Source: Dipteris shenzhenensis | Lineage: Eukaryota | Assembly: GCA_047967505.1 (NCBI GenBank) | Contig: CM106538.1 | Reading direction: 5' to 3' (one strand) | DNA length: 64,000 bases | Shown here: positions 3,736 to 49,051 of the stretch, piece after piece | Numbering within the stretch: position 1 is the first letter of the stretch | Layout of the letters: every line of letters begins with the position of its first letter | Position numbers and translations under genes: made by a program | The notes under the pieces: generated by a model | What the model saw: the letters and a program-made list of their open reading frames with translations, nothing else | What the model was told of the DNA's origin: nothing | Databases searched by the model: none

Positions 3736-4372
3736 AGTTTTGTTTTATAAGAGCCTCTTTTTTTTAAATGCTTTATCCAAAATTATCTCACAAAACAAAT
3801 TTGGACAGTGCACCAGTCCAAAATTAATGAAATAGGTGTTATTTGCTCCTGTTAAGGTAGCCATCCATTTCAGTACCATCAAGGGTGGCTATTCGGCAGA
3901 CCCTTGGGGAGTGCTCTCAACCACATGGTAGGGACCCATACCTTGATACTTTAGGTTATGCTTGGTATTCCGAAGACTATATAGGAGTGCCAAATCTCCC
4001 TTTGCCATGTCCTTATTCTTGTAGTTGCGATCAAACCACTTTTTATGGTGGGCCTTTTCTACCCATAGAGAGTAGGCTGCATGCAACCTTGTCTCTTCTA
4101 GCCTTTCAAGGCCAACTAGCCGTTCTGCTAATGCATTCTTTGTGAGTCTTTTCTTAACGGTAAGATGAAGGCTAGGCACGACATACTCCATTGGCATTAC
4201 CGCCTCCACCCTGAAGGCTAGGCTGAAGGGGGTACAATGCGTGGCCACTTTGTAGGACGTTTTGTAGGCCCATAGTGCTACTGTGAGCTTATGCTCCCAG
4301 TCGGTATGACTGGCTTCTACTGTATAGGTGATGATCTTACAACACGTTTTATTGGAGCTCTCAACCAAGCAT

Positions 4373-4757
4373 TGTTGAGATATGGTGCCATGTGCATACA
4401 AATTAAAGGCTGAGGTATGGTATAGGAAAGAATTAAAGTAGCCACCCTAGGATGTGGACTACATGATGTGGAGATGTGGATTAAGGATATCCACCACAAG
4501 GAGAGATGTGGATCAGAGGATCCCACAAGTGTTGACTATTCCAAGGGCACTCTCTATATAAGAGGCCTATCATGTATTGTTGAAAAAAGAAGAAATGCAC
4601 ATTCACTCAAGATTTTGTTTATGAGTCCAAGCTAATCTATCTTGGAACCTAATTGACTTGAGGTACATGTCATGAGCACTCTCTTCATTATGTTCTCCAC
4701 ATAGGTTCCATCCACCTTAGAGCGCTTCATCGATCCTGAGGCACGCATGTTTTGTCA
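4373..4757 (+). repeat. 5' LTR of non-autonomous element
   Basis: Direct repeat of 6704-7068, TG..CA ends, followed by PBS. Confidence 0.9.
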
Positions 4758-6703
4758 TGGTGGTATCAAAGCTCCCTTGCCTTCCGTTGAGGCATTGCGA
4801 TCCACACGAGAGAGATTGAGAGATCTTTCATTCCATTAATGAAAGGGGATTTCCGTCCATTGATAGAGAGAATTCGGTCCATTGAATGAAAATTCCGCTC
4901 ATTTCTTTGAGAATTTTCGTCCATTCATTTTGTGAGAGAGTTCTTTGAGAGATTGAGTGTGAGAGATAGGGAGCGACTCTTCACTAAATTTGTGAGAAAG
5001 CCTATGCTTTCTTTGCCTTGTGAGATTTCATTGTGAGGGAGAGAAACTTCTGTTCTTTGAGAGAGTTTCAATGTTCAAAGGCCCATACTTCAGCTCCCAC
5101 CTTCTACGGCCTAAATGACTACTCAAGCCTTATCAACAGGCTCCAGCAATAAGTAGCTAAGGCTTCATCAACAAGCAAAAGCCACCTCGGCTTCCTTGGC
5201 TCACTAGAGCCATAGCGCAACGAACAACTATGGCCTCACGGGACTGCATCCCTGCAACGATCTCCAGCGCAGCCCCAACGTTTCACCTATTGCACTTTTG
5301 TACGGGTCTCTATTGATGACAACACTCCAACGACGCTAGCCATTTTGCAAAGCCGCCGCCACAGACGCTCTCCACAGCTCTATCTCCTATTCGGGCTTCC
5401 TTGTTAGCCCAGGCTCATCTCCTAGCGGCTCTTCCAGCCATCCATAACCGGCAGCTCACAGCCAGGCTCGGCTGGACACCTTCAGCAACAACGGACGAGC
5501 CCTCTATAATCCGATTAGTTGTGGCAGACAACTCAGCCAACGATCCGCTCAGTCGAATGGAAGCTCCAGCGTACTCAGCAGCGCTAACAACAGCACCACA
5601 AAGCGCCTTCAACGGGATGGATCTCCAAGCTTCTTCACGAAACACTTGGGTGGCTACTCCAACAGCAAAATAGATGCCAACCTCCACTCCACCAGCCAAA
5701 CGACGTCAACGCAAGCTCCTACGAACAAAGAAGATGACAGCCCGCGTGACACCTCTAGCAAACGAACCGCCTCTCACATGATAGACCAGAAAAAACTGCT
5801 CGGGCTGCTCCACTGACACACCGCGCCATCGCGTCGCCTTCTCCACCACGTCATCGATGATTCTCCACCGCGTCGCCGTTGTCTGCAAAGAAGCTTGAAA
5901 GCTTCCATTTCTTTTTTCTTGTTGGCAGATAGCATCTAACCAGGGTTAGGTGAAGCTAACCCGTGGTTCAAAGTCTTGGTCAGTTTTTTGCCATGTGGCA
6001 GACAGATTCTAGCCTTGGTTAGTGCAATGGTTAAGTTTAGTTAACCTTGAGTTCAAACGGTTTGGTTAGGTTACACAGGGTTTGGTTCAGTTACAGGTTG
6101 GGTTTGGTCAAAGTTGTGCCAACACAGCTTCTTGCTAAGCATTCTTTGTAAGCAGCATGTGACTCCCTATGCCACATCATCAATTGCCCTTCTTCGCGAT
6201 CAAAACTTCAACAAGTCGTAACTTCCAATCTAGGAAGAATTTGCACAAGCTCCAAAAATGAAAAGTGATCGTCTTTTCGAGCTCTACGCGCTTGTCAAGT
6301 TAGAATAATTGTTAGCAACTAGACACTGCCAATATTGAAAGAAATCAATTAAAAGCACAAGTGTATGAGATGATCATAGCATGAAGCATGGCATCCACAC
6401 ATAAAGCATTAAGGCACATGGAAGAACAAAGTATCATGCATCAAGCTACATCAAGCAAAGAAGAGAACGCCATCGACATCAAGCATTGAGAAGCAACCAC
6501 CTTGTCACCTTTAGCCCACACGTTTGTAAATCAAACCTGACCACCTACAAGTAGCCATGTAGGCACTCAGGGGAGGTATTGACATGTAAAAGCCACACTT
6601 GACCACCTTATATAGCAAGGTATGCACTAATGGGAGGTGATGGAATGTAAACTCACATCTGACAACCTTACGATAGCCAATGGATCATGGCACCAAGGGG
6701 AGG

Positions 6704-7068
6704 TGTTAAGATATGGTGCCACGTGCACACAAATTAAAGGCTAAGGTATGGTATAGGAAAGAATTAAAGTAGCCACTCTAGGATGTGGACTACATGATGT
6801 GGAGATGTGGATCAAGGATATCCACAAGGAGAGATGTGGATCAAAGGATATTCCAAGGGCACTCTCTATATAAGAGGCCTATCATGTATTGTTGAAAAAA
6901 AAAGAAATGCACATTCACTCAAGATTCTGTTTATGAGTCCAAGCTAATCTATCTTGGAACCTCATTGACTTGAGGTACATGTTATGAGCACTCTCTTCAT
7001 CATGTCTCCACATAGGTTCCATCCACCTTAGAGTGCTCCATCGATCCTGAGGCACGCATGTTTTGTCA
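6704..7068 (+). repeat. 3' LTR of non-autonomous element
   Basis: Direct repeat of 4373-4757, preceded by PPT. Confidence 0.9.
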
Positions 7069-9017
7069 GCCATTTGCCCTAGGGTATTATGGTGTTGACT
7101 TCCTATGTATGATCATAAACTCAGTAGTCAGTATTGCTATCGTTTTGTTGAGGAATTGAGTTCCTTGGTTTTGCTGACTAACTCCAAGGGACATCCGAAC
7201 CGCATAATGACTTGTTCATATAAGAATTTAGCGGTGGATCTTGCATCAGCCTTCATAGTGGCTCTCCCTTCTACCCACTTGGTGAAGTAATCTATGGCCA
7301 GGATGATGTATCTAGCCTCGATTCCCTTAGCTGCTGCTGCTGCTAGGCTTATGGGTCTAATGAAATCGATGCCCCATTTCTCGAAGGGTTGATCGGCTAG
7401 GATTCCGATCAAGGGCATCATGTCCGCTTTGTGTGGGATTTGGATACGCTGGCAGGGGTCGCATCGTTTGATGAATTCGGCCACATCTCTGAAGAGTGTG
7501 AATTCGGTCACTATGAGCATGTATTTGGGATTCATAGGATAGGGGTGTTGACGTATCGGCCTGGCATCATCTAGCATAGGGATTGTGTGCTGCACTACTT
7601 AGGAAGGCACCCCTTTCATCTCGATGTACTTCTAGGCCATGAAGTTGTTGTACTCTTGTAGGAGAGCTATTAAGGCATTCTCCTCGTTGGGGGTGAGATC
7701 ATCGACGATGATGAATACGGGTTGGGGTTCCTGCCCTTTCGGGGCTAGGTTTACCTCCTTGACTGGGGCTAGCCCGTCATACTCTTGGGAGCATCTGTCT
7801 TCCCAAGACCTTTTAGCCTGTTAGTATAAGATCTTGCGATCCTCAATCGTGTAGTCCTTGTAATGGGCTGGTACTTGTCGTAGGTCCTCTTTTTCTTCAC
7901 TTTCCTCTATTTCTATCAAAGCAATGGTCCTTTTGGCCTTAGCCATGCTTTTGGATAGAGGGGGTTTGGGACTTGAAGGGGGCTCTTCCATTGTGCTTAT
8001 AGAGCTGATGGGGGAGGTTATCTTACTCGCCCTAGTCCCCTAGTTGCAGGAGAGCTCGTGGTGCGAAGTTGTGGCCACCATGTATGAGAGCCAATGGAGA
8101 TCTGATTTTACCCTCATGGTTCCCTTGCTTACCTCTCGGGGTTTGAGCATGTTAAACATTCTTAGGGGAGCCACCGAGGTCAGGCCCTCAAGCTCTGGGG
8201 TGGTGTTGATCTGAAACCCTATCCTCTCTGGGACATCTATATTGGCTAAGATGTGCATCCAATTCCGCGAGAATTCTGTCTTGGGGAGAGGTGCATACCA
8301 GAAGTCATCAGGCTCCTTCTCATCCTCTTCCTTGTCACTCATAGGGTTGGAATAGGTTCACGGACATGGTTTGGGCAGTGGTGTTAGATTCTGTGCGACA
8401 AAGAGGTGTCCGGACAATGGGTGGGCCTTGTAGAGGTGTGCAAGTCCACTCTCATCGTGGTTTGCTCTAGCTTCATATCCCAGTTGCCGAGTGAAGTCCA
8501 TGACTAAGAACCTGACGGGGTACGTGAATCCAAATACCTTAATGTTTATGCCAGTAAGCACTCCCAAGGGCTCAATGGTTCCCAAGGCCTCAACCTTTTG
8601 GTTTTGATAGATTATGGGGATAGCGGCGTTTGTGTCATCACCCTCGAGGTACTAGCCTAGCTTGTTGATGGGAACCTTGGGTAGGTTCTTCCCCTTTTTT
8701 GATGACAATTGGTTGGGCTTAGGGCGAGCACGGACTGGGGGCTGGGGGCAAGAGTGGTATGTTCATCTAATTGGATAGATCGTGCCATAGGATGGGATTT
8801 CCTCTTAGCAGGGAAGCGGTTGGCATTTTTACCTCTGTCGGTAGGAAGGCAGCCAACCTAGCACCATCACAAGGTTCTTGTGAAGCCTCTTCTTCCATGG
8901 ACAATAGGTCCTCGAAGCCATACAGGTCTCCTTCCTCCTGCAGGTTTTGCAGCATTGGGTCTTCCTGGAACATTTTTTGCATCAGATCCGGAGCTTCTGA
9001 CTGATCGAAGCTGAGGT

Positions 9018-34261: not shown

Positions 34262-36220
34262 TGTGATACTCCGAACAGGGCCATTTTCATGCCTTTTATA
34301 AAGAGAGACGTCCAGATTTCGTACGCGTTCACTATCAAAAGAGCACGCTAAAAGAAGGTGAAAAGCACACGCACGCTTTTTGAGAAAAGCTATTTTTGGC
34401 CGAATTTGGGGGCTTTTGGCCGTCTTCTTTTGGAATCATGAAAGGCTATAAAAGAAGAGGAGATCGTGAGAAGAACACACAATCCAACGCATGCATATCG
34501 AGGCTACGTGAAAGAGAAGAGAAGGCACGCATATCGAGGCTGCGCGAAAGCGAAGAGAAGGCACACATATCGAGGTTGCTCGAGAGAAGAGAAGGCACAC
34601 ATATCAAGGCACTGCGGAAGTGACAATTAGCGCACGCGAATCGAGGCAGTGCAAAGAAGAAGATAAGATCAAGATATTTTGAGAGTGAGAGTGTGATTGA
34701 GATTTGATCATTTGATTTGAACATCTTCATGCGAGTGAGAGTGAGAGTGAGATAGCTCGGGGGTGGACGGGTGGTATCGAGCTCCTTCACGGAGTGATTC
34801 TTCTCCAAAATTATTGTAAAGACTCATCAGTTTGATTCATACTGCAATCTCTCTTCTTGTTCATTCGTGATTATTATCTTGCTACAATTTTGATCGTGAT
34901 TGTGAAAGAACAGTGCGTGACAAGTGGTATCAGAGCCCAATTTCGATGGCAGACAACGAGGCAATTATGAAGAAACTAGAAGAACAAGATTCATTGATTC
35001 GAAGGCTAACCATGGAATTAAATAGATTGTCCAAAGGAAAAGGCGTAGCGGATGATGGAGCTAGTGGTGGTGTTGTTGGCAGAAATTTAGAAGATGAAGA
35101 GGTCTATGTCGGCGTACCGAACCGAAGGAGACAAACAGGTGAGGAAGATGTTGCCGAATCTACTCTTTTGCAATTTTTTAAGAAAGCGAAACTATTTAAA
35201 TTTGATGGTGAGAAGAAGACCAGGGAAGATTTGGAAGTGTAGCTTGAAGAACTTGAAGATTTCTTTGCTCTACAAGAGCTTGATGAAGCGGGAAAGGCTA
35301 AGATCGTAGCACTACAATTACGTGGAGTTGCAAAACTATGGTCGAAGTCGCATGTGCAAATCCGACAACATCAAGATCAACCCATCACATGGGCTAAATT
35401 CAGAACTGCAGCTGAAAAGAGGTATTGTTCTCCACATTATTATATGGAAAAGAAGATGGAGTTCTATAATTTTAAGCAAGTATAAGAGGGAAAACATAAT
35501 CTCTCTGTGGATGAGTATAAAGAGAAGTTCCTACGATTACATAAGTACGTACCTGAGGTCACAGGTGAAGCTCTTACTCACAAATTTGTGGAAGGGCTTA
35601 AGGAAGATCTTTTATATATCATGAAAGGAACACGATCAAGTGATTTCTTGGATGCTGTGGCTAAGGCCGAAAACTTTGAAAAGATGGAAGAATATAACCT
35701 AAGAAAGATAGCAAAATCAAAGTTCATTCCAACAGGTCATCGTTCTCAAGGGTCACAAGGTTCAGGTATGCCTCAACGAAAACGTGATTATTCGAATATG
35801 CCTATATTTCAAGAGAGGAGTAGCCAACCTAGGTACAACCAAGTGGGAAGGCCAAACTTTAATAACCAAAATCAGAATCAGAATCAAAATCAAAATAAAA
35901 GAAATAAAGGAGTTTCAAATCAGAAAACCCAAGAAAATGCACCTTGGAAAAGTGATCAAGAGATTATTGAATGGGCAAGAAGATTGGGATTATGTTTCCG
36001 ATGTGGTGAGCAAGGTCACCGAACATTTGAGTGCCCGAATAAAGCAAAATTTAATTTTATGAAAGGACCAATTATGGGAGCAAAGACGAATTAGATGAAT
36101 CCAACCATCGACGAAGCGGGGACAAAGGTAAGTGCTTGGAACCTATGAAATGTATGGCATCTTCCACAACTCATATGCATGCATCTGTGATTAAAGTAAT
36201 GGGGAAAATTGGGAATCAAT
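34262..36220 (+). mobile_element. 5' part of a Ty3/gypsy element: LTR 34262-34922, PBS 34925-34936, gag ~34946-36094; truncated near the protease
   Basis: TG..CA LTR followed by TGGTATCAGAGC. Gag SVDEYKEKFLRLHKYVP..KFVEGLK and zinc knuckle LCFRCGEQGHRTFECP. The LTR 5' boundary is inferred because there is no second LTR. Confidence 0.85.
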
Positions 36221-36614
36221 CTTGAGGGCGAGCACCTTTGGCCATAGTAGAGTTCTGTGTGCGATTAGCACTCTGCTTCCCTGTGTTTTGGAAATTTGTA
36301 ATGCGCTCTGCGTAAGCAATAGCGCCAGCTGTGGTGGTGATGTTTGCTTTAAGGACATCATTCTCAGTTAAACCATCAATCTCCAGCACCAATGTGGTGA
36401 ACTGAGAGATGTAGGAAGACAGGGAGCCTGTTTGCTCTAACTGTTGGAGTTTTGAGCATGCTTGGAAGTCCGCATTGGCAGGTATGAGTCTAAAGGATAG
36501 TGAGACTGATGCTCTTTGGGCTTGGAGTGGGGTCGTGCACCTCGTAGCAATTGATTGGATGATTCCACTAGGTCCTTTGTATACAACAGTTTTGGGAGGA
36601 GCATTGTAGAGCAT
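36221..36614 (-). pseudogene. Ty3/gypsy gag fragment (different element)
   Basis: ACSKLQQLEQTGSLSSYISQFTTLVLEI resembles the retrotransposon gag homology region. Confidence 0.65.
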
Positions 36615-36619
36615 CCCCG

Positions 36620-38602
36620 GTGTTCAAGAAGGCATTGTGGAAGAGGGTGTCATGCGGTGTGTACATTGAGCATGGTGCATGTTTTTTGGAGTGTACCCAG
36701 ACTGAGTTGTACACTCAGTTTGTAGAGGCACACCTGGAGTTCAGGATTGGGCAGAGGTCATTTGAGCGATGCAGGCCATGGTTTGTGCGATGCTCTCAGG
36801 AGCATGACACATGCTGTTGTCGCTACCATGTGGATTTTGGATTGATGTATGACGTATTCTATTTCCTTGATGGTCATAGGGGAGTGGTTCCTACTAGCCC
36901 TCACGACTTCATTCATTCCATATTGTGTACATGAGATGGCGATGCTTTATTCCACTCCCTTGATTGTGTGGAAGGCCAGTTGCACTAGATACTTGTGATG
37001 TGCAAATGGTTCATTGGCAGCAGTATGAGTACAGTACCCTAACATTAGATGGTGGTGCACAGTCGAGGAGGTTGCAACTTGTGGGGAAGGAGACACCACG
37101 TGTTGTATTCATTGATAGTTTTCAAGGGAAGCTGTACCGCTACATACGCCACTCGCACACTACGAAGTGGGAGGATCATCAGTTCCGTGCATGTTTGAGG
37201 ACATTTCCTATAGGGGTGATTGTCTCAGTGGTGGACCTTGTGGAGAATTATACCTTTGCATCATAGCATGAGATCCAATTGGAGTATTATTTCTCCGAAC
37301 AGGTGACGTGTGATTGAGTTATTGGTTTTTTTATGGCCTCATTATATTGAATTATTTCAATAGTCATATTTTTTTTCAATGCCATATTATAGGTTGCTAT
37401 ATTTGTGCACATTAGCTATCGTCATGCACAGGCTCATGTGGATGGCATTGATAGCACCATGGACTCACGCGTCATTGTGCGAGAGTATCACTTCTACATT
37501 AGTGATGATCGATCGAATCTCGATCGCATGATGCCCATTTTGTGTAGCATTGCTTCACTTTGCATGATAGTTCTTGAGGGATCATGGTGTCACATGGCAG
37601 CAGCACTGGATCTAGTCAGATGGCTATGGTGGTCAGTTCAAATTTGCTAGATAGTTTTATTGGTTCTGCAGATGGCACCGTGAGACAGGCATTCCGATCA
37701 CATGGAGCTACTTCGAGACAGGGCACGGTAAGGGAGAGCATGATGGTGTAGGTGCTTACATGAAGCGTGCTTTGCATCGATACTAGTTGTGTCACAGTGC
37801 CGATCACTTCAAGGATGCACATGATGTGGTGCGGTGGTGCAGCCAGCACTTATCCACTAGTGCTATCTCCTTGTTTCAGTCGCGTGACGATAGGGTGGTG
37901 AGCTAGTATTTTTGGTGCGTGGACATTGGGAGTCTTGATCAGTCTAGGCCTTTTGATTGTCCTTCAGTGTCTAGCACTCTTTATTTCCATTCCATCAGGA
38001 GCATAGGTGAGTCTCACCCCACGATCTTTTCTCGACGGTTTGCATGTTTTTGCTCCGCATGCATTGATGATGATTGGGGAGGGTGCTCCATGATACCATG
38101 GGCCGATCCATGGGCACGGCGATTGCTTTCTCCCTTCCAGCCTTGGGAGGAGGTACATGATGATCAAGATGCGGGATTCAGTTCCTATAGAGATTATGAC
38201 CAGCTTATAGATATGTTGCGTATTGGTGATATCTTCGCGGTCATTGCTCCGGAGGGCAATGAGGAGGGTGTGGATTATTACTTGTTGCGATGCTCTATGG
38301 TGAAGAGTGTGCTAAATGAGGATACAGTGGATGGGCATGGGATGCACTTCAATGCTCATAGCATGATCGTAGGTGGCCACTATTTTCAGTAGATACAGAG
38401 GCATGGTTGCTATATTGAGTTCCAGTAGTACATGGCGGATTAGGAGGCATACATGTATTCTCATCTTGTTGTCGCGATCAAGATTACTATGAGTCGTGTT
38501 CGCACTCGCAAGGTGACATCCACTCCACAATGGTGCCTTGCAGTGGAGGATCATGAGAGCATACTTACAACTATTGGCATGAGAGCCGATCCTGAGGAGT
38601 AG
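36620..38602 (+). pseudogene. Sola2-type DDD transposase relic (intron 37303-37392)
   Basis: RPWFVR..TCCCRYH; VDLVENYTF..EIQLEYY..QV; YISDDR..HD; SDGYGGQFK; WSYFETGHGKGEHDGVGAYMKRAL; FHSIR..RRFACFCSAC. Stops and frameshifts present. Confidence 0.72.
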
Positions 38603-38929
38603 CACATTACATATCATAGTTTTGGGATCATCAGTTGATCAGATAGATTTTTATTGAGTATCACTAGTTGATTACATATTTTTGTATTCAATATGTATAG
38701 GCTCATTGTGTGACCGTACCATTGTAATTTTCATGGACTCATATTTTGTATTTCACTATGATGGTTTTATACATGTTCATACACATCATTGTATTAGATT
38801 CTATTTTACACATGATGTCCGTTGTCTTCTCAATGGGATTTGTTGTTTCTGTAAAACAAAAAATTGTTTATTAGTAGTAATGTTGTAATTGTGTTTTGTG
38901 CTTTAGGACATTTAAAAATGTGACTAAGA

Positions 38930-40846
38930 AAATTCGTGCACGTACTAACCAAATACGCATGTGGACTTATCTGTTGGGGATGAAACTCTGCACGGCTCTT
39001 AGGCTACCCTAGACCTACATCCATGCAAGATTTGGTCTCTGAATGATTTGGTATGTGCCATGTGGAAGGTATAATGCATACATTTTTGCATGCACTCACT
39101 ACTAGTGATGACTACGTATTAAAAATGGTGCATGTACTAACCAAATATGCATGTGGACTTATCTGTTGGGGATAAAACTTTGCGCGGCTCTTAGGCTACC
39201 CTAGACCTACATCCATGCAAGATTTGGTCTCCAATTGATTTGGTATGTGCCACGTGGAAGGTATAATGCGTACATTTTTACAATCCCTACTAGTGACTAC
39301 GTATGAAAAATAGCACACGTACTAACCAAATATGCATGTGGACTTATCTATTGGGGATGAAACTTTGCACAGCTCTTAGGCTACCCTAGACCTACATCCA
39401 TGGCAGATTTGGTCTCCAAATGATTTGGTATGTGCCACATGGAAGGTATAATGCGTACATTTTTGCATGCACTCACTACTAGTGACTACGTATGGAAAAT
39501 GGCACACGTACTAACCAAATACGCAGGTGGACTTATCTGTTGGGAATGAAACTTCGCATGGCTCTTAGGCTACCCTAGAACTACATCCATGCAAGATTTG
39601 GTCTCCAATTGATTTGGTATGTGCCACGTGGAAGGTATAATGCATACATTTTTGCAAGCACTCCCTACTATTGACTACGTATGAAAAATGGTGCACGTAC
39701 TAACCAAATATGCATGTGGACTTATCTGTTGGGGATGAAACTTTGCACCGCTCTTAGGATACCTTAAACCTACATCCATACAAGATTTGGTCTCCAAGTT
39801 ATTTGGTATGTGTCACGTGGAAGGTATAATGGGTACATTTTTACAATCCCTACTAGTGACTACCTATGAAAAATGGCGCACGTACTAACCAAATACGCAT
39901 GTGGACTTATCTTTTGGGGATGAAACTTTGCACAGTTCTTAGGCTACCCTAGACCTACATCCATGCACGATTTGGTCTCTAACTGATTTGGTATGTGCCA
40001 TGTGGAAGGTATAATGCGTACATTTTTACAATCCCTACTATAGTGACTACGTATGAAAAATGATGCATGTACCAACCAAATATGCATGTGGACTCATCTG
40101 TTGAAGATGAAACTTTGTGCAGCTCTTAGGCTGCCCTAGACCTACATCCATGCAAGATTTGGTCTCCAACTGATTTGGTATGTGCCACGTGAAAGGTATA
40201 ATGCATACATTTTTACAATCCCTACTAGTGACTACGTATGAAAAATGATGCACGTACTAACCAAATACGCATGTGGGCTTATCTGTTGGGGATGAAACTT
40301 TGCATCACTCTTAGGCTACCCTACACGTACATCCATGTAAGATTTGGTCTCCAACTGATTTGGTATGTGCCACGTGGAAGGTATAATGCGTACATTTTTA
40401 CAATCCCTACTAGTGACTACGCATGAAAAATGGCGCATGTACTAACCAAATACGCATGTGGACTTATATGTTGGGGATGAAACTTTACACAACTCTTAGA
40501 TACTGTAGACGTACATCCATGCAAGATTTGGTCTCCAACTAATTTGGTATGTGCCACGTGGAAGGTATAATGCGTACATTTTTACAATCCCTACTAGTGA
40601 CCGTATAAAAAATGGCGCACGTACTAACCAAATATGTATGTGGGCTTATCTATTGGGGATGAAACTTTGCATGGCTCTTAGGCTACCCTAGACCTACATA
40701 CATGCAATATTGGGTCTCCAACTGATTTGGTATGTGCCACGTGGAAGGTATAATGCGTACAGTTTTACAATCCCTACTAGTGACTATGTATGAAAAATGG
40801 CACACGTACTAACCAAATACGCATGTGGACTTATCTGTTGAGGATG
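38930..40846. repeat. ~185-bp tandem satellite, about 10 copies
   Basis: GTACTAACCAAATA..GTGGACTTATCTGTTGGGGATGAAAC recurs near 38942, 39134, 39319, 39508, 39697, 39882, 40069, 40254, 40439, 40621, 40806. Confidence 0.97.
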
Positions 40847-41045
40847 ATTTTGGACCAATCGTACATAATCATGTATTAATATTTGACACATGTTACTACC
40901 AATGAGCACCATTCCATGCTAAACATTGACATTTTTTTCTTAATCTACAATTTACAAAAATTAGGTACAATATTAGTGTAATAATTGCAAGCATTGATGT
41001 ATACGAAATTCAATATGATATTCAAAATGATCAAGTTCATGGCAC

Positions 41046-41048
<3 letters not shown>

Positions 41049-41088
<40 letters not shown>
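41049..41088. repeat. (AG)n microsatellite
   Basis: Perfect AG run. Confidence 0.95.
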
Positions 41089-41092
<4 letters not shown>

Positions 41093-41459
41093 TACTTGAA
41101 CACCTTTTCAATGCTTAATGTTTACAATTACTTCACACGGCATTATTTTTTAAATACCTTATGTATTAGATGTGTGAATTGAGATATCTGAAATTCAAAA
41201 TGATACTCCTAATTTTAAATGTTTATGTTAGATTTGATCAAACTATAAACTGAGATAAACAAAGTAAGAAGAACATCATGAAAGTACCAAAATGCTTATA
41301 CATCATAAAAGTAAGAACAACATCATGAAAGTACCAAAATGAATGTGTACATCATCATCATCATCGTGCAGAAGTGCATCCCTAAACAAGATATGTGTGA
41401 AGCCTAAACAATCATCCTGAATTAGAATCTGATAACTCCACATATGATCCTCTAGTCGT

Positions 41460-43675
41460 CCTTTCACGTGGCTCTTGTATGACCTGTTGCCAAACCGTCC
41501 TGTGTGCCCTCAGGTAAAGCCGGATCAGATGGACCAGCCTCAGCTCCTGGATCAGATGGGCCAGCCTCATCCTGATAAAGAGGAGGGCATGCTACACGAG
41601 CCACCACTGCCATCTCTGCCTCCCACGCCTCCTCTATGTATGCGCACCTTAGCTCCCGAAGTCGTGCATCTGCAAATACTCGTGCCTCAAATCCAGTGCG
41701 AGTAATCATCTCTACATGTAGAAGACACTGGTCTCGACCCCACCCAAGCTGTTGCTCCACCCACTACTATAATTATATATGAAGCTCTACCTCTTGCTCA
41801 ATACGACGTGCCTCCTCTGCTCGTGCCTCGTCATCTGGCATGAAATCACCATATGAGAAGCGTCGCGAAACACACGCTGCAACCACTGAAGTATCAGCAC
41901 CCTCCTGTTGCAACAACACTCTCTGTGCCTCCTCCCTGTAGTGCTCTGTCAAGACCACGTGGGCAAATGGATCAATGGCCTAACAATGATCAGGATATAG
42001 ATCATCCATGCCTAGTCCTTTGTATGTGGCCATATCAATGTCAGCAAAGCATACAGGGCAGACTAATCCTACCACCATGTGGCGGGTCATGCAATGGAGA
42101 TGTGCAATGTGGCCGCACCCTAGTCCAAACCACCCTATGGTGTCAAAATCCTCATGGCAAAGGATGCAGGTGGTGGTAGGAAGCTTGGCTATGACTAGTG
42201 CATCTATGGGTGTCCTAGTCAGCACATCTATAGGAGGAGCGGGGTACAGGGCCACACTGGGGTTGATCCTATGGCGAGATGGATCACGACTAATATGTCT
42301 CAACTACAAAATATAGTGCTCCGCTCGATGGTAGGCTATGCATGTCCGAATCCTCTGCTCCTCCAAATCTGCCTCCAATTGTCGTACATGAGACTCCATA
42401 TCTTGTCGCAATAGATGTGCCTGCCAAGCAAACATGTCGCATACATGGTGAGAATGAACCAAAAAACTTCAGTTCAAAACATGCAACAAAAAAATACACT
42501 AAAATAATCAGAATAACTAACCTCAACCCTCGACTCAGCCAACAATGCCTCCAACTCTGTAATCCATGCATCTCGAGTATCCAACTCATGCTGAGGCGGT
42601 GTAGATGTGGGAGGTGGTGTAGATGTGGGAGGCTCCATAGATGTGGGAGGTGGAATTGAAAGTGATCTCGATAGGGCAGAGACCATGTCGTGCAAGGATG
42701 AGGCCACTGAATGAACATCCCCCCTAATCCATCCTCCAATAGCTCGCAATGTTTGTGCAGCTTCTGTGCCTCGCGTTGACGCCAAACACCTATAGTCTGA
42801 CGCTCCTGATGCCCCATCCTACCATGTCCCGCTCTTGGGTACTAAGGTAGTCTACCAGATGACCAAGCATAAATTCGGCGTATAGCTGCATGGCAAATGA
42901 CCTGGCTATCTGACGATTATTTCATTTTCAAAGAAATTTCAAACTTTGTGTTAAAGATGCTACACTTCCCTAATTTAAAAAATAATATAAAAACTACTTT
43001 AATCTCTTTTTTAAAATAAACGAAATAGATTATTTTAAAAAACAAAATATATACATTTTGACATTTAAATAAAAATTTCACTAACTTGACAAATAATATA
43101 AAAGCTACTTTAAACTCTTATTTTCTTTTTTTAAATAGATGATTTCTGAAAACAAAATATAAATATTTTTATATTTAATTCAAAACTTCACTAATTTAAA
43201 AAATAACATAAAAACTACTTTAATCTCTCTTTTTTTTAATAGATGATTTTAATAAACAAAATATATACATTTTGACATTTAAATAAAAACTTCACTAACT
43301 TAAATAATATAAAAGCTACCTTAAACTCTTATTTTCTTTTTTTTAAAAAGATGATTAAAAAAATAAAATTTAAACATTTTTGTATTTAAATAAAAAAAGC
43401 ACTAATTTAAAAAATAACATAAAAACTACTTTAATCTCTTTTTTTTTAATAGATGATTTAAAAAAACAAAATATATACATTTTCACATTTTAAATAAAAA
43501 CTTACGTAATTAAAAAAATAATTTAAAAAAACTTTAAAATGCATTTAAAATTTTGAAATATTTTATAATTAAATTAGATATTATTATAAACTAAAATTTA
43601 AATAAATTTTCACAAAAAAAAAAGCTACATAAAAAAAACCTTACGTGGAATCTCCTGCTCCGTCCATCTCCATCG
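41460..43675 (-). pseudogene. Decayed 3-exon gene encoding coiled-coil + RING-H2 finger protein
   Basis: CILC-x12-CGHIAHLHC-x10-CPVC (C3H2C3) at ~42175-42045. TATA-like motif at rc ~43780, MEMDGAGDS then GTAAG donor (~43645). Second intron ~42520-42421. In-frame stops present. Confidence 0.7.
42965..43560. repeat. AT-rich ~107-bp tandem repeat (5-6 units, alternating A/B types) inside intron 1 of the RING gene
   Basis: CTAA(T/C)TT..AAATAA(T/C)ATAAAA(A/G)CTAC recurs near 42970, 43079, 43189, 43293, 43400 and, degenerate, 43505. Confidence 0.85.
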
Positions 43676-43739
43676 CTCCGTCGTTGTCCGTCGGTCCTTG
43701 TCTGTCGCTCTCGCAATTTCGTCGATTTTGATGAGGAGG

Positions 43740-44482
43740 AGCTCGATCGAGGTTTGAAGAATGATGGGGTTCCTCTCTTTATATACGAAAATTTAGGGTT
43801 TTAATACCACGATCGAGGAATTGGAATGCCACATACCTCGATCGTGGTATTGGACATGCAACATACATCATCGGTCCAGCATACCACTTGCGATGCCATA
43901 TACCTCGATCGTGGTACTTCACATGCTACATACATATCGGTCCAACATACCTCGATCGTGGTATAGACATGCCACGATACCTCAATCGAGGTATCTCAGC
44001 TGCCAGCATAGTAGATGTCGGATGCCACATACCTCGATCGTGGTATTTGACATGCCACATACGCATCGGTCCAACATACCTCGATCGAGCTATAGACTTG
44101 CCACGATCCCTCGATCGAGGTATGTCAGCTGCCAGCACAGTACATGTCGGATGCCACATACCTCAATCATGGTATTTGACATGCGGCCAAGTCATCGGTC
44201 CAGCATACCATGATCGAGGTATGTGGACTTGCCACGGTACCTCGATCGAGGTATGTCATCTGCCATGTCGGATGCCACATACCTCGATCGTGGTATTTGA
44301 CACGACCGATGTCATCTATCCACGATACCTCGATCGAGGTATGTGGACTTGCCACGATACCTCGATCGAGGTATAGGCTCGGTTCGGTGAAAGAAAGTCT
44401 AGGACCTCGATCAAGGTATTGGCTTGGTTCAGTTGTCCTCGTGTGCAAATTTCATTGGAGACGATACCTCGATTGAGGTATT
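43740..44482. repeat. Array of ~20 copies of the palindrome ATACCTCGATCGAGGTAT (subterminal repeats)
   Basis: Exact copies at e.g. 44357 and 44326, with many 1-2 mismatch variants separated by variable spacers. Confidence 0.92.
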
Positions 44483-44573
44483 TCACACCAAAGCAAAACC
44501 TTTCACTCGAGGGGGTGTCACACTCACCCGCAAGTGGTCCGAAAGTGGACACCCTTAGCTTGCTACCTCCCTC

Positions 44574-47500
44574 TTGGATGACATCTATGTGAACTCAACG
44601 TGGGATGACCACATGAAGTACCTTAGGCTCATCCTCGAGAAGTGCTGCTTATACCGCATATCCCTGAATCCTCTCAAGTACTAGTTCTGGGTCAAACATG
44701 GTGTCATTCTTGGCCACATAGTGTCCCGGAATGGAATCTCTATGGACCACAATAAAATCAAACTCATCTTGGAGTTACCACCCCCACCAAGGGAGTCTAA
44801 CGATTTACTGGCCACATGGGCTATTACAGAAGATTCATCTTATTCTACAAAACCATAGCCCACCCATTATATGAACTACTAGTATCCTTTGAGTGGACCG
44901 AGGAATGCCAAGAATCCTTCGAAACCCTCAAACTAGCTCTAGCCACCACACCAGTGTTGAGGTCACCCTACTGGAATTTAATATTCCACGTCCATATCAA
45001 TGCCTCCAACTTTGCCATCGGGTGTGTGTTAGCCCAACCCAGGGAGCATAATTTGGATTACCCAGTATACTTTGCGAAGTGCCAACTAATCGAGGCTGAG
45101 GTTAACTACACCACAACTGAGAGGGAAGGTCTACATGGTCTAGTCAAGAAGTTCAGGAACTACCTATAGGCTAACAAGTTTGCCTTCTTCATGGACCACC
45201 AAGCATTGCTATACTTGGTCAACAAGCCCTGCATGACTGGATGCATCACCACATGGATGTTAATCCTTTTAGAGTTTGACTTCATAGTCACTGTACGTAA
45301 AGGGAAAACCCACGTCCTAGCTGACTAGCTATCAAGAATCCCAAATGCTAAAGCCCCAACGGGAGTAGAAGATGATCTCCCAGATCCTTCTCTCTTCTTC
45401 CTTGACATCATCCTTGAATGGGCCACCGAAATCAGCCACTACTTGGCAAACAAATTACCCCTGGGCCAGCCCCTTAAGAAGGATTGAGCCAGTAAACTCA
45501 TTAAGGATGCAATGCCATACCAATTGATAGAAGGCCAACTATACCGTAAGGGCAAGGATGGCATCCTACGAAGATGTGTGTGCGAACATGAATACATGGA
45601 TGTGCTTGAAGAAGCCCACCTAGGAATCGCAGGAGGTCATTTTTCCACTGATGTTCAACGTAAAGTGCTGCAAGCTAGTCTTTGGTGGCCGACACTCTTC
45701 AGAGATGCGGCTAAATTCATCAAACGATGTGACCCCTGCCAGCGTATCCAAATCCCACACAAAGCGAACATGATGCCCTTGATCAGAATCTTGACCGATC
45801 AACCCTTCGACAAATGGGGCATCGATTTCATTGGACCCATAAGCCTAGCGACATCAGTAGCTAAGGGAATCGAGGCTAGATACATCATCCTGGCCGTAGA
45901 TTACTTCACCAAGTGGGTAGAAGGGAGAGCCACTATGAAGGCTGAGATCCACCACCAAATTCTTATATGAACAAGTCATTATGCGGTTTGGATGTCCCTT
46001 GGAGTTAGTCAGCAAAACCAAGGAACTCAATTTCTCAACAAAACGATAGCAATACTGACTACTGAGTTTATGATCATACATAGGAGTCAACACCATAATA
46101 CCCTAGGGCAAATGGTTGACAAAACATGCGTGCCTCATGATCGATGGAGCGCTCTAAGGTGCATGGAACCTATGTGGAGACATGATGAAGAGAGTGCTCA
46201 TGACATGTACCTCAAGTCAATTAGGTTCCAAGATAGATTAGCTTGGACTCATAAATAGAATCTTGAGTGAATGTGCATTTCTTTTTTTTTCAACAATACA
46301 TGATAGGCCTCTTATATAGATAGTGCCCTTGGTATATCCTCTGATCCACATCTCTCCTTGTGGATATCCTTGATTCACAGCTCCACATCATGTAGTCCAC
46401 ATCCCAGGGTGGCTACTTTAATTCTTTCTTATATACCTTAGCCTTTTAATTTGTGTGCACGTGGCACCATATCTCAACACCTCCCCCTGGTGCCATGATC
46501 CATTGGCTACCGTAAGGTGGTCAGATGTGAGTTTACATTCCATCACCTCCCCTTAGTGCATACCTTGCTATATAAGGTGGTCAAGTGTGGCTTTTACATG
46601 TCAATACCTCCCCTGAGTGCTTACATGGCTACTTGTAGGTGGTCAGGTTTGATTTACAAACGTGTGGGCTAAAGGTGGCAAGGTGGTTGCTTCTGAATGC
46701 TTGATGTCGATGACATTCTCTTCTTTGCTTGATGTAGCTTGATGCATGATACTTTGTTCTTCCATGTGCCTTAATGCTTTATGTGTGGATGCCATGCTTC
46801 ATGCTATGATCATCTCATACACTTGTGCTTTTAATTGATTTCTTTCAATATTGGCAGTGTCTAATTGCTAACAATGATTCTAACTTGATAGGCGCGTAGA
46901 GCTCAAAAAGACGATCACTTTTCATTTTTGGAGCGTGTGCAAATTCTTCCTGAATTGGAAGTTACGACTTGCTGAAGTTTTGATCATGAAGAGGGGCAAT
47001 TGATGATGTGGCATAGGGATGCTTACAAACAATGCTTAGCAAGAAGCTGGGTGCTTAGGTGGTACTTGGTGATGTGGCACAGCTTTGACCAAACCCAACC
47101 TGTAACTGAGCCAAACCCTGTGTAACCTAACCAAACCCTTTGAACTCAAGGTTAACTAAACTTAACCATTGTACTAACCAAGGCCAGAATCTATCTGCCA
47201 CATGGCAAGAAACTGATCAAGCCTCTGAACCACGGGTTAACGTCACCTAACCCTCGTTAGATGCTATCTGCCAACAAGAAAAAAGAAATGGAAGCTTGCA
47301 AGCTTCTTTGCAGACAACGGCGACGCGGTGGAGAATCATCGATGACGTGGTGGAGAAGGCGACGCGATGGCGCGGTGTGTCAGTGGAGCAGCCCGAGCAG
47401 TTTTTTCTGGTCTATCATGTGAGAGGCGGTTCGTTTGCTAGAGGTGTCACGCGGGCTGTCGTCTTCTTTGGTCGTAGGAGCTTGCGTTGACGTCGTTTGG

Positions 47501-49051
47501 CTGGTGGAGTGGAAATTGGCATCTATTTTGCTGTTGGAGTAGCCACCCAAGTGTTTCGTGAAGAAGCTTGGAGATCCATCCCGTTGAAGGCGCTTTGTGG
47601 TGCTGTTGTTAGCGCTGCTGAGTACGCTGGAGCTTCCATTCGACTGAGCGGATCGTTGGCTGAGTTGTCTGCCACAACTAATCGGATTATGGAGGGCTCG
47701 TCCGTTGTTGCTGAAGGTGTCCAGCCGAGCCTGGCTGTGAGCTGCCCGATTATGGATGGCTGGAAGAGCCGCTAGGAGATGAGCCTGGGCTAACAAGGAA
47801 GCCCGAATAGGAGATAGAGCTGTGGAGAGCGTCTGTGGCGGCGGGTTTGCAAAATGGCTAGCATCGTTGGAGTGTTGTCATCAATAGAGACCCGTACAAA
47901 AGTGCAATAGGTGAAATGTTGGGGCTGCGCTGGAGATCGTTGCAGGGATGCAGTCCCGTGAGGCCTTAGTTGTACGTTGCGCTATGGCTCTCAGTGAGCC
48001 ACGGAAGCCGAGGTGGCTTTTGCTTGTTGATGAAGCCTTAGCTACTTATTGCTAGAGCCTGTTGATAAGGCTTGAGTAGTCATTTAGGCCGTAGAAGGTG
48101 GGCGCTGAAGTATGGGCCTTTGAAGAAACTCTCTCAAAGAAGAGAAGTTTCTCTCCCTCACAATGAAATCTCACGAGGCAAAGAAAGCATCAGGCTTTCT
48201 CACAAATTTAGTGAAGAGTCGCTCCCTATCTCTCACACTCAATCTCTCAAAGAACTCTCTCACAAAATGAATAGACGGAAATTCTCAAAGAAATGAACGG
48301 AATTTTCATTCAATGGACCGAATTCTCTCTATCAATGGACGGAAATCCCCTTTCATTAATGGAATGAAAGATCTCTCAATCACTCTCTCAATCTTTCTCA
48401 TGCAGATCGCAATGCCTCAACGGAACACAAGGGAGCTTTGCCAGTCATACCGACTGGGAGCATAAGCTCATAGTAGCGCTATGGGCCTATAAAACGTCCT
48501 ACAAAGTGGCCACACATTGTACCCCCTTCAGCCTAGCCTTCAGGGTGGAGGCGGTAATGCCAATGGAGTATGTCGTGCTTAGCCTTCATCTTACCGTTAA
48601 GGAAAGACTCACAGAGAATGTGTTAGCAGAACGGCTAGTTGACCTTGAAAGGTTAGAAGAGACAAGGATGCATGCAGCCTACTCCCTCTGGGTAGAAAAG
48701 GCCCGGCATAAACAGTGGTTTGATTGCAACTTCAAGAATAAGGACATGGCAAAGGGAGGTTTGGCACTCCTATATAGTCTTCGGAATACCAAGTGCAACC
48801 TAAAGTATCAAGGTATGGGTCCCTACCGTGTGGTTGAGAGCACTCCCCAAGGGTCATGCCGAATAGCCACCCTTGATGGAACTGAAATGGATGGCTACCT
48901 TAACAGGAGCAAATTAAAAAGATACTATGGGCCACTCACTCTTTCCACCCTTCAAGCTGTGTATAGAGAAAAAGAACTCAAGGGCGAGGTGGCCAGGATG
49001 AAACGCCAGGCAATGGAGGAAGCTAGAGCTCGTAACGCTAAGCTCCGATAG
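44574..49051 (+). mobile_element. Ty3/gypsy pol (RT C-half, RNase H, INT), split by non-autonomous LTR element copy 2
   Basis: LDDIYV, MGYYRRFI, HINASNFAIGCVLAQ, NYTTTERE, AHLGIAGGHF, CDPCQR, WGIDFIGP. Segment 45692-48914 is the inverted paralog of 3841-7499. Confidence 0.92.
46117..48440 (-). mobile_element. Non-autonomous LTR element, copy 2 (3' LTR 46117-46479; 5' LTR and most of the PBS deleted)
   Basis: Reverse complement of ~4767-7068 at the identical integrase position. A deletion joins the PBS remnant to INT at 48440/48441. Confidence 0.92.

Follow-up and report, generated by a model that had tools for sequence, protein, structure and literature searches.

A dead DDD transposon fragment, probably of a plant Sola2 branch, with a putative RING-H2 passenger gene in Dipteris shenzhenensis

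Gene capture is a known habit of plant DNA transposons, among them Pack-MULEs, CACTA elements and Helitrons. The present report concerns an element remnant at positions 36486-44573 of a 64,000-nucleotide stretch of Dipteris shenzhenensis DNA (GenBank assembly GCA_047967505.1, contig CM106538.1; the whole stretch is called the window hereafter), in which the relic of a transposase with a triad of three aspartates (DDD) and the pseudogene of a RING-H2 protein, the type of a ubiquitin E3 ligase, are found together in transposable element (TE)-rich, eukaryotic sequence. The closest described systems are those of the Sola2 group of transposons. A Sola2 transposase of 888 aa has been described, as have Sola2-Fanzor1 chimeric elements in the dictyostelids Dictyostelium fasciculatum and Polysphondylium pallidum, in which a Sola2-type transposase and an unrelated second protein gene share one element (PMC3627910). 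Members of that family have the transposase side in common and differ in the other side, the second gene encodes a TnpB-like Fanzor1 protein and not a RING finger, and the elements carry terminal inverted repeats (TIRs) of 12-21 bp and AT-rich target-site duplications (TSDs) of 4 bp, none of which are readable in the window copy (PMC3627910). Sola was without a Pfam model in a 2017 survey (PMC5751038), has been reported in bivalves (PMC10294476) and in a moss while being "not common in flowering plants" (PMC10741241), and, under the label DNA/Sola-2, makes up 56.7 Mb of the assembly of the conifer Cryptomeria japonica (PMC11539532). An initial annotation of the stretch, made from the letters alone, had started from the premise that Sola elements are known mainly from animals and as single-gene elements; given a Fanzor1-bearing Sola2 (PMC3627910) and a conifer Sola-2 (PMC11539532) in print, that premise is dated.

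On balance, the remnant is read here as a dead, 5'-truncated, large cut-and-paste DNA transposon amid Ty3/gypsy debris, belonging to a plant branch of Sola2 and carrying the RING gene as a passenger of its lineage. Like the Sola2 group, the family has a DDD transposase of about 700-970 aa without a Pfam model, large elements, and hosts that include non-flowering plants, cnidarians and bivalves; it differs in that the 4-bp TSD and the conserved termini of the group are unreadable in the truncated window copy, and in having a BAH-like C-terminal barrel and a palindromic subterminal array, features that are not known to have been described for Sola2. As in plant gene-capture transposons, a host-like gene is carried by a DNA element present in many copies, degenerates together with that element and is confined to one lineage; however, the gene here is a near full-length frame (about 320-430 codons) instead of a short exon fragment, and the carrier is Sola2-like, not a MULE as in the Pack-MULEs. 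As a TE fragment the window copy is dead and ordinary, and it is the RING passenger and the BAH-like tail of the transposase that are the noteworthy points.

The transposase relic was found on the plus strand at 36572-38599, where it is spread over three frames with many stops and frameshifts. Residues 12-714 of a 721-aa homologue (P0120) were mapped by tblastn onto 36572-38575, and most of the coding region is thus present, though dead. The motifs D..ENY, ISDD..HD, SDG..QFK (37616-37642) and GHGKGEHDG (37721-37747), which the initial annotation had listed for the transposase relic, are all there. When the read-through frame 37613-38599 was used as a phmmer query against a database of 1.84 billion representatives, 947 matches with E<=1e-3 were obtained, of which 121 had E<=1e-10 and 8 had E<=1e-30. 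The gene had at least one intron, of 90 nt, whose removal brings the flanking residues into line with a Klebsormidium homologue. All seven stops in the frame 37613-38599 are TAG. TAG also makes up four of the five stops in the RING frame, and the counts in the two frames would fit C-to-T decay of methylated CAG/TGG contexts.

Named relatives of the transposase were found in Adiantum capillus-veneris (47% identity), Ginkgo biloba (38%) and Klebsormidium subtile (35% over residues 2-320), with others in K. nitens, Pleodorina starrii and Riccia sorocarpa (three proteins), and a branch at greater distance is abundant in the genomes of cnidarians and bivalves. Every database name is "uncharacterized", and transposase sizes in the family are 720-970 aa. 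In A2, an alignment of 11 longer members, all 11 sequences keep D579 (DYAEN), D659 (SDG) and D700 (HGKGxxDG), and D628, K666 and H694 are likewise invariant. No Pfam family was matched by any of the 150 top homologues at E<=0.001 or by any of the 10 long ones at E<=0.01; THAP, XPG, helicase and rve domains were not found in either set. The AlphaFold2 model of the Klebsormidium homologue P0005 had a predicted local distance difference test score (pLDDT) of 88.5, and its residues 1-197 were matched to the core of the RSV integrase with Z 9.0 (144 residues aligned, root-mean-square deviation 3.2), followed by IstA (Z 7.8), Hermes (Z 7.2) and Mos1 (Z 7.0). Residues D6, D101 and D142 of this protein lie at the canonical positions, the first behind strand 1, the second behind strand 4 and the third where the helix that follows strand 5 begins. 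The transposase is a member of a widespread eukaryotic DDD family whose integrase-like RNase H core is accompanied by a Cys4 finger and, in the model, by a BAH-like barrel at the C-terminus.

A profile search with A2 returned only its own first sequence, probably owing to search words taken from the low-complexity N-terminus, and metagenome contig scans with P0001 and with P0043 were both empty. The family PF25273 (DUF7869), which is carried by 72% of one neighbouring Atlas cluster, was considered and rejected, as no hmmscan match to it appeared even at E<=10; a literature search for this family found no mention of it. The three Riccia sorocarpa proteins (P0111, P0039 and P0041) match only from the third-Asp block onwards, with unrelated N-terminal halves and one of them named "F-box domain-containing"; chimeric gene models and domesticated fragments are both conceivable origins. 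An assembly filed as a bacterial metagenome-assembled genome (G001; loci L001-L024) contained 22 transposase matches on contigs of about 2.6-7 kb, and for seven of the 22 the open frame exceeds 850 aa; this assembly very likely contains host (animal) DNA. Two related animal elements within it share the TIR GACGCGACGTCAGATATTGC, with one arm of each at a contig end and hence no flank pair, and the other TIR candidates in this assembly were short and had no consistent TSD.

The last approximately 130 residues of P0005 (about 292-421, corresponding to 38189-38590 of the window) resemble a BAH or Tudor-like beta-barrel. With the whole P0005 model, the C-terminal domain was matched to DNMT1 BAH1 (Z 6.5) and ORC1 BAH (Z 6.4); with a model of the domain only (pLDDT 92.6), the top seven VIA rows were all BAH-containing chains (Z 7.1-6.1), and Foldseek gave weak matches to polybromo BAH (E 0.055) and EBS (probability 0.92). 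Since Z values below 8 can come from a common arrangement, the domain is called BAH-like and no more. Among chromatin readers in TE proteins, the available portion of one preprint names Chromo and PHD fusions, and BAH is not among them (bioRxiv 10.1101/2021.11.30.470311); a literature search for a BAH-bearing transposase, as far as the sources could be seen, found none. Like the chromodomains of chromoviral integrases and the Chromo and PHD fusions, the barrel is a small reader-like beta-barrel domain placed C-terminal to an integrase-fold enzyme; it differs from them in its BAH-like fold, and its binding of histone marks is putative. The barrel may direct insertion to marked chromatin.

The RING gene is convergent to the transposase and lies 2.9 kb downstream of it, past a tandem array with a 185-bp unit. 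At 41467-42426, the RING frame holds five in-frame stops, whereas the two remaining frames hold 20 and 21. The C3H2C3 ligands are complete and canonically spaced (C-x2-C-x13-C-x-H-x2-H-x2-C-x10-C-x2-C; 42049-42168, minus strand), and the sequence, CILC-x13-CGHIAHLHC-x10-CPVC, corresponds to residues 46-85 of the minus-strand open reading frame 41980-42303. The domain was matched by Pfam zf-RING_2 with E 3.9e-5 and 24.3 bits, which is below the 27.3-bit cut-off; its best match among solved structures was RNF38 (E 1.6e-4), and the nearest Atlas clusters to the protein were RING families (score 0.94). These data bear out the minus-strand C3H2C3 gene that had been annotated; its five in-frame stops had gone unmentioned, and this copy of the gene is dead, not intact. 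An adjoining open frame at 42474-42818 may be the first exon of the RING gene; it had no family match.

Contigs of three public runs were compared with 35500-45500, among them the runs X1 and X2 from two related organisms. The X1 run is very small, and 58 of the 243 pieces compared were at least 99% alike; coverage extended over 36486-38618, the 185-bp array and 41178-42912 with a word depth of 22-63, and was zero on both flanking retroelements; the gap at 43182-44183 is no evidence of absence, as the filters drop low-complexity records. Variant sites in X2 were carried by 14-20 contigs within the transposase and by 7-12 within the RING region; in the palindrome array the number was nine, and nine X2 contigs cover 44190. 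From the co-coverage in X1 and the contig counts in X2, the RING region is present in several copies in both related organisms, and in one of them it follows the transposase. The initial annotation, in which a single-copy RING gene would have been fatal to the idea of a shared element, therefore holds on this point, since the region is repeated in X1 and X2 and, in X1, shares its coverage with the transposase and the 185-bp array. A lineage-specific RING passenger that was amplified and decayed with the element is the most economical reading of these data, and the gene was probably acquired by capture; that is, it is more likely a captured host gene travelling with the element of one lineage than an accessory gene conserved since long ago. 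The transposase of intact copies would bind the palindromic subterminal repeats, excise the element and reinsert it elsewhere, and the RING gene would have travelled along as its passenger.

Several observations weigh against this reading. No contig bridging the transposase and the RING gene was present among the 23 pieces listed (6902 more are unlisted), and the summed depth in X2 was 160-500 over the transposase and about 10-fold lower, at 13-50, over the RING region. The X1 contigs leave the window sequence at 36486 and at 42912, which means that the window copy is a fragment, and the stretch 42913-44573, including the palindromes and the apparent terminus, may belong to something else. No left terminus, TIR pair or TSD could be read in the window copy, the latter two because it is 5'-truncated. 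No homologue of the RING protein was found among 2399 candidates from other proteomes (E<=1e-3; lengths of 176-560 aa only), and the nine best-supported differences in the RING frame, a small sample selected by support, fell on codon positions 1, 2 and 3 in 6, 1 and 2 cases, respectively, with no sign of purifying selection on the frame. The BAH-like match reaches only Z 6-7. Lastly, the superfamily name was given by presumed motif resemblance and by elimination, and membership of the transposase family in Sola2 is no more than rather likely.

The alternative that fares best touches this last point, namely that the transposase comes from another superfamily (Sola1, Sola3, Novosib or an unnamed DDD group) and that its motif resemblance is convergent or mistaken. 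Two elements of the animal branch end in GACGCG.. and not in GRG, which favours this alternative. The motif resemblance to Sola2 is presumed, and literature searches brought up no description of Sola2 motifs or termini. Of the termini presumed for the group, 5'-GRG..CYC-3', only the right junction is present in the window. However, the triad is DDD and not DDE, the THAP, XPG, helicase and rve domains were not found, the size of the transposase is near the 888 aa of the Sola2 transposase (PMC3627910), and the host range of bivalves, cnidarians and moss-grade plants fits what has been reported for Sola or Sola2, including a conifer labelled Sola-2 (PMC10294476, PMC10741241, PMC11539532). A superfamily other than Sola2 is thus considered fairly unlikely.

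It is unlikely, and slightly more so, that the RING segment (about 41100-42912) lies outside the transposon as an unrelated repeat or host-gene pseudogene, placed there by nested insertion or rearrangement. The region is certainly a patchwork, with a gypsy element that is interrupted at 36219 and taken up again at 44574, some 1 kb of it missing, and a reversed gag fragment in between, and the missing joint between RING and transposase among the 23 listed pieces, the depth gap in X2 and the lack of detectable relatives of the RING protein over the lengths searched all suit such an origin. In X1, however, the transposase, the array and the RING region are covered continuously at like depth while the flanking retroelements are not, the X2 contig counts (14-20 and 7-12) are of the same order, and no repeat boundaries or TIRs enclose the RING segment alone. 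The RING segment is read here as a probable passenger within the element.

The initial annotation had gone further and proposed a ubiquitin-ligase gene stably carried by a plant Sola lineage. In its strict form, the RING-H2 protein would be a conserved accessory E3 ligase needed by intact copies, for instance in anti-silencing or transposase turnover. The convergent orientation, the intact ligand pattern and the long, nearly open RING frame would agree with this, as would the multi-copy RING region covered together with the transposase in X1, and Fanzor1 is an earlier example of a second gene within Sola2 elements (PMC3627910). Relatives of the transposase, however, are present in a fern, Ginkgo, a liverwort and algae, yet no RING homologue was found in the proteomes of other plants among candidates of 176-560 aa, and this argues against a gene stably carried across a plant lineage; in addition, a RING domain was present in none of the 10 long transposase homologues, the sampled RING differences show no third-position excess, and this copy contains five stops. 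A literature search for a DNA transposon with a separate RING gene found none in the material seen, in which papers on RAG1/Transib were included. A conserved accessory ligase is accordingly regarded as quite improbable, and the more elaborate proposal that intact copies are two-gene elements, with a DDD transposase whose histone-mark-reading BAH-like barrel steers insertion and with a convergent coiled-coil RING-H2 E3 ligase kept to ubiquitinate a host silencing factor or the transposase itself, is more improbable still.

For the RING gene as a passenger, then, the sequence pieces are real, and a working partnership with the transposase is without direct proof; the observations of the initial annotation were largely right and its interpretation is partly supported. 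If the RING gene were in truth a maintained partner of the transposase, ubiquitin ligation would be a new accessory function of transposons and could help to explain how DNA transposons cope with host silencing in ferns and gymnosperms, whose genomes are huge. As the evidence stands, a DDD (Sola2-like) family is documented over green plants, from chlorophytes to Ginkgo, and its modelled BAH-like C-terminal barrel suggests chromatin-directed insertion. The locus also serves as a worked example of how nested-TE debris can mimic a tidy two-gene element. The features of the remnant and its flanks are collected in Table 1.

Table 1. Features of the element remnant and its flanks, in window coordinates
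Feature	Position	Strand	Basis or remark
Flank: retrotransposon gag fragment, reversed	36219-36485	-	Pfam Retrotrans_gag E 0.004
Leftmost stretch common to other copies	36486-36571	+	Break point of truncated copy, not terminus; X1 contig matches from 36486 rightwards
Transposase, N-terminal conserved block (IQQFWEEH..IGQRSFE..CCCRYH)	36572-36976	+	tblastn: P0120 residues 12-160 to 36572-36976, P0046 residues 382-445 to 36683-36868; alignment A1
Transposase, catalytic block 1, first Asp in VDLVENY (37231-37251)	37066-37302	+	Column of invariant D579 in A2
Transposase, 90-nt GT..AG intron	37303-37392	+	Removal of GTGACG..TATAG restores SEQ joined to VAIFVHISYRH, aligned to SDQVTIFVHITYRH of P0005 (Klebsormidium homologue)
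Transposase, segment with ISDD..HD (ISDD 37498-37509), frameshifts	37393-37612	+	Three frames needed
Transposase, long single frame: SDG..QFK (second Asp), GHGKGEHDG (third Asp), Cys4 finger 38045-38089, BAH-like barrel about 38189-38590	37613-38599	+	7 stops
Internal array of 10.2 tandem 185-bp units with 89% matches	38938-40847		Present in many copies in both X1 and X2
RING-H2 pseudogene, main frame of 320 codons, 5 stops; RING-H2 domain 42049-42168	41467-42426	-	Ligand pattern, zf-RING_2 and RNF38 matches
Candidate upstream exon of RING gene: Pro/Thr-rich, then heptad-like stretch, another frame	42474-42818	-	114-aa open frame; no family match
AT-rich block with 104-bp tandem array (42964-43538)	42913-43640		Absent from X1 copies
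16 palindromes, core ACCTCGATCGAGGT	43740-44479		Read as putative subterminal binding-site repeats
Terminal stretch up to reverse transcriptase (RT) junction	44480-44573	+	Junction uncertain by about 5 nt
Flank: Ty3/gypsy pol from LDDI of RT, then RNase H and integrase zinc finger	44574-45970	+	RT_RNaseH_2 E 2.7e-22; Integrase_H2C2 E 8.4e-12

The left boundary had been placed at 36620 by the initial annotation; this coordinate is wrong, as it lies inside the transposase coding relic, with protein homology beginning at 36572 and similarity to other copies at 36486. To the left of 36486, the X1 contig carries 255 unlike letters, and a 30-mer from there is not present in the window. Similarly, two X1 contigs run on unlike the window after 42912, and their 30-mer is also absent from it. 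On the right, the sharp end against an RT that had been described is present, but it is exact only to about 5 nt: the junction reads ..CCTCCCTC if it is set at 44573, and its link to the transposase is putative. A related RT in the window reads VFLDDLCIYS compared with SLLDDIYVNS here, and for this reason the CTC at 44571-44573 may already be part of the RT.

The palindromic array is as had been seen initially, with 16 matches to ACCTCGATCGAGGT at no more than two mismatches, all of them at 43740-44479, against 0.12 expected; none of 100 shuffles reached 16. The 185-bp array was represented in X2 by up to 32 contigs at one site, with a depth of up to 781 and with many joints that go back or skip; outside the element the array may occur as a satellite, too. 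One X1 contig departs from this array at 40380 into sequence ending in AAACCCTAAA, which is like the plant telomere-repeat unit. An (AG)20 tract lies at 41049-41088.

The host Ty3/gypsy element encodes a plus-strand gag with a zinc knuckle at 35486-36094, is broken at 36219 and resumes at 44574. The split element (35486-36219 and 44574-48914) is without about 1 kb, namely the remainder of the protease together with the front half of the RT, and X2 contigs with loose ends at 36219 continue into a protease-like LIDSGS. The reversed gag fragment at 36219-36485 shows that the insertion was not clean. Rfam and tRNA scans of 35000-46000 gave nothing, and no second copy of the transposon was found within the window, the sole match being an (AG)n microsatellite. 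The gag of the host Ty3/gypsy element had a summed depth of about 35000-39000 in X2 and was absent from X1, and a second partial Ty3/gypsy copy, reversed and 94% identical to 45692-48914, was located at 3841-7499.

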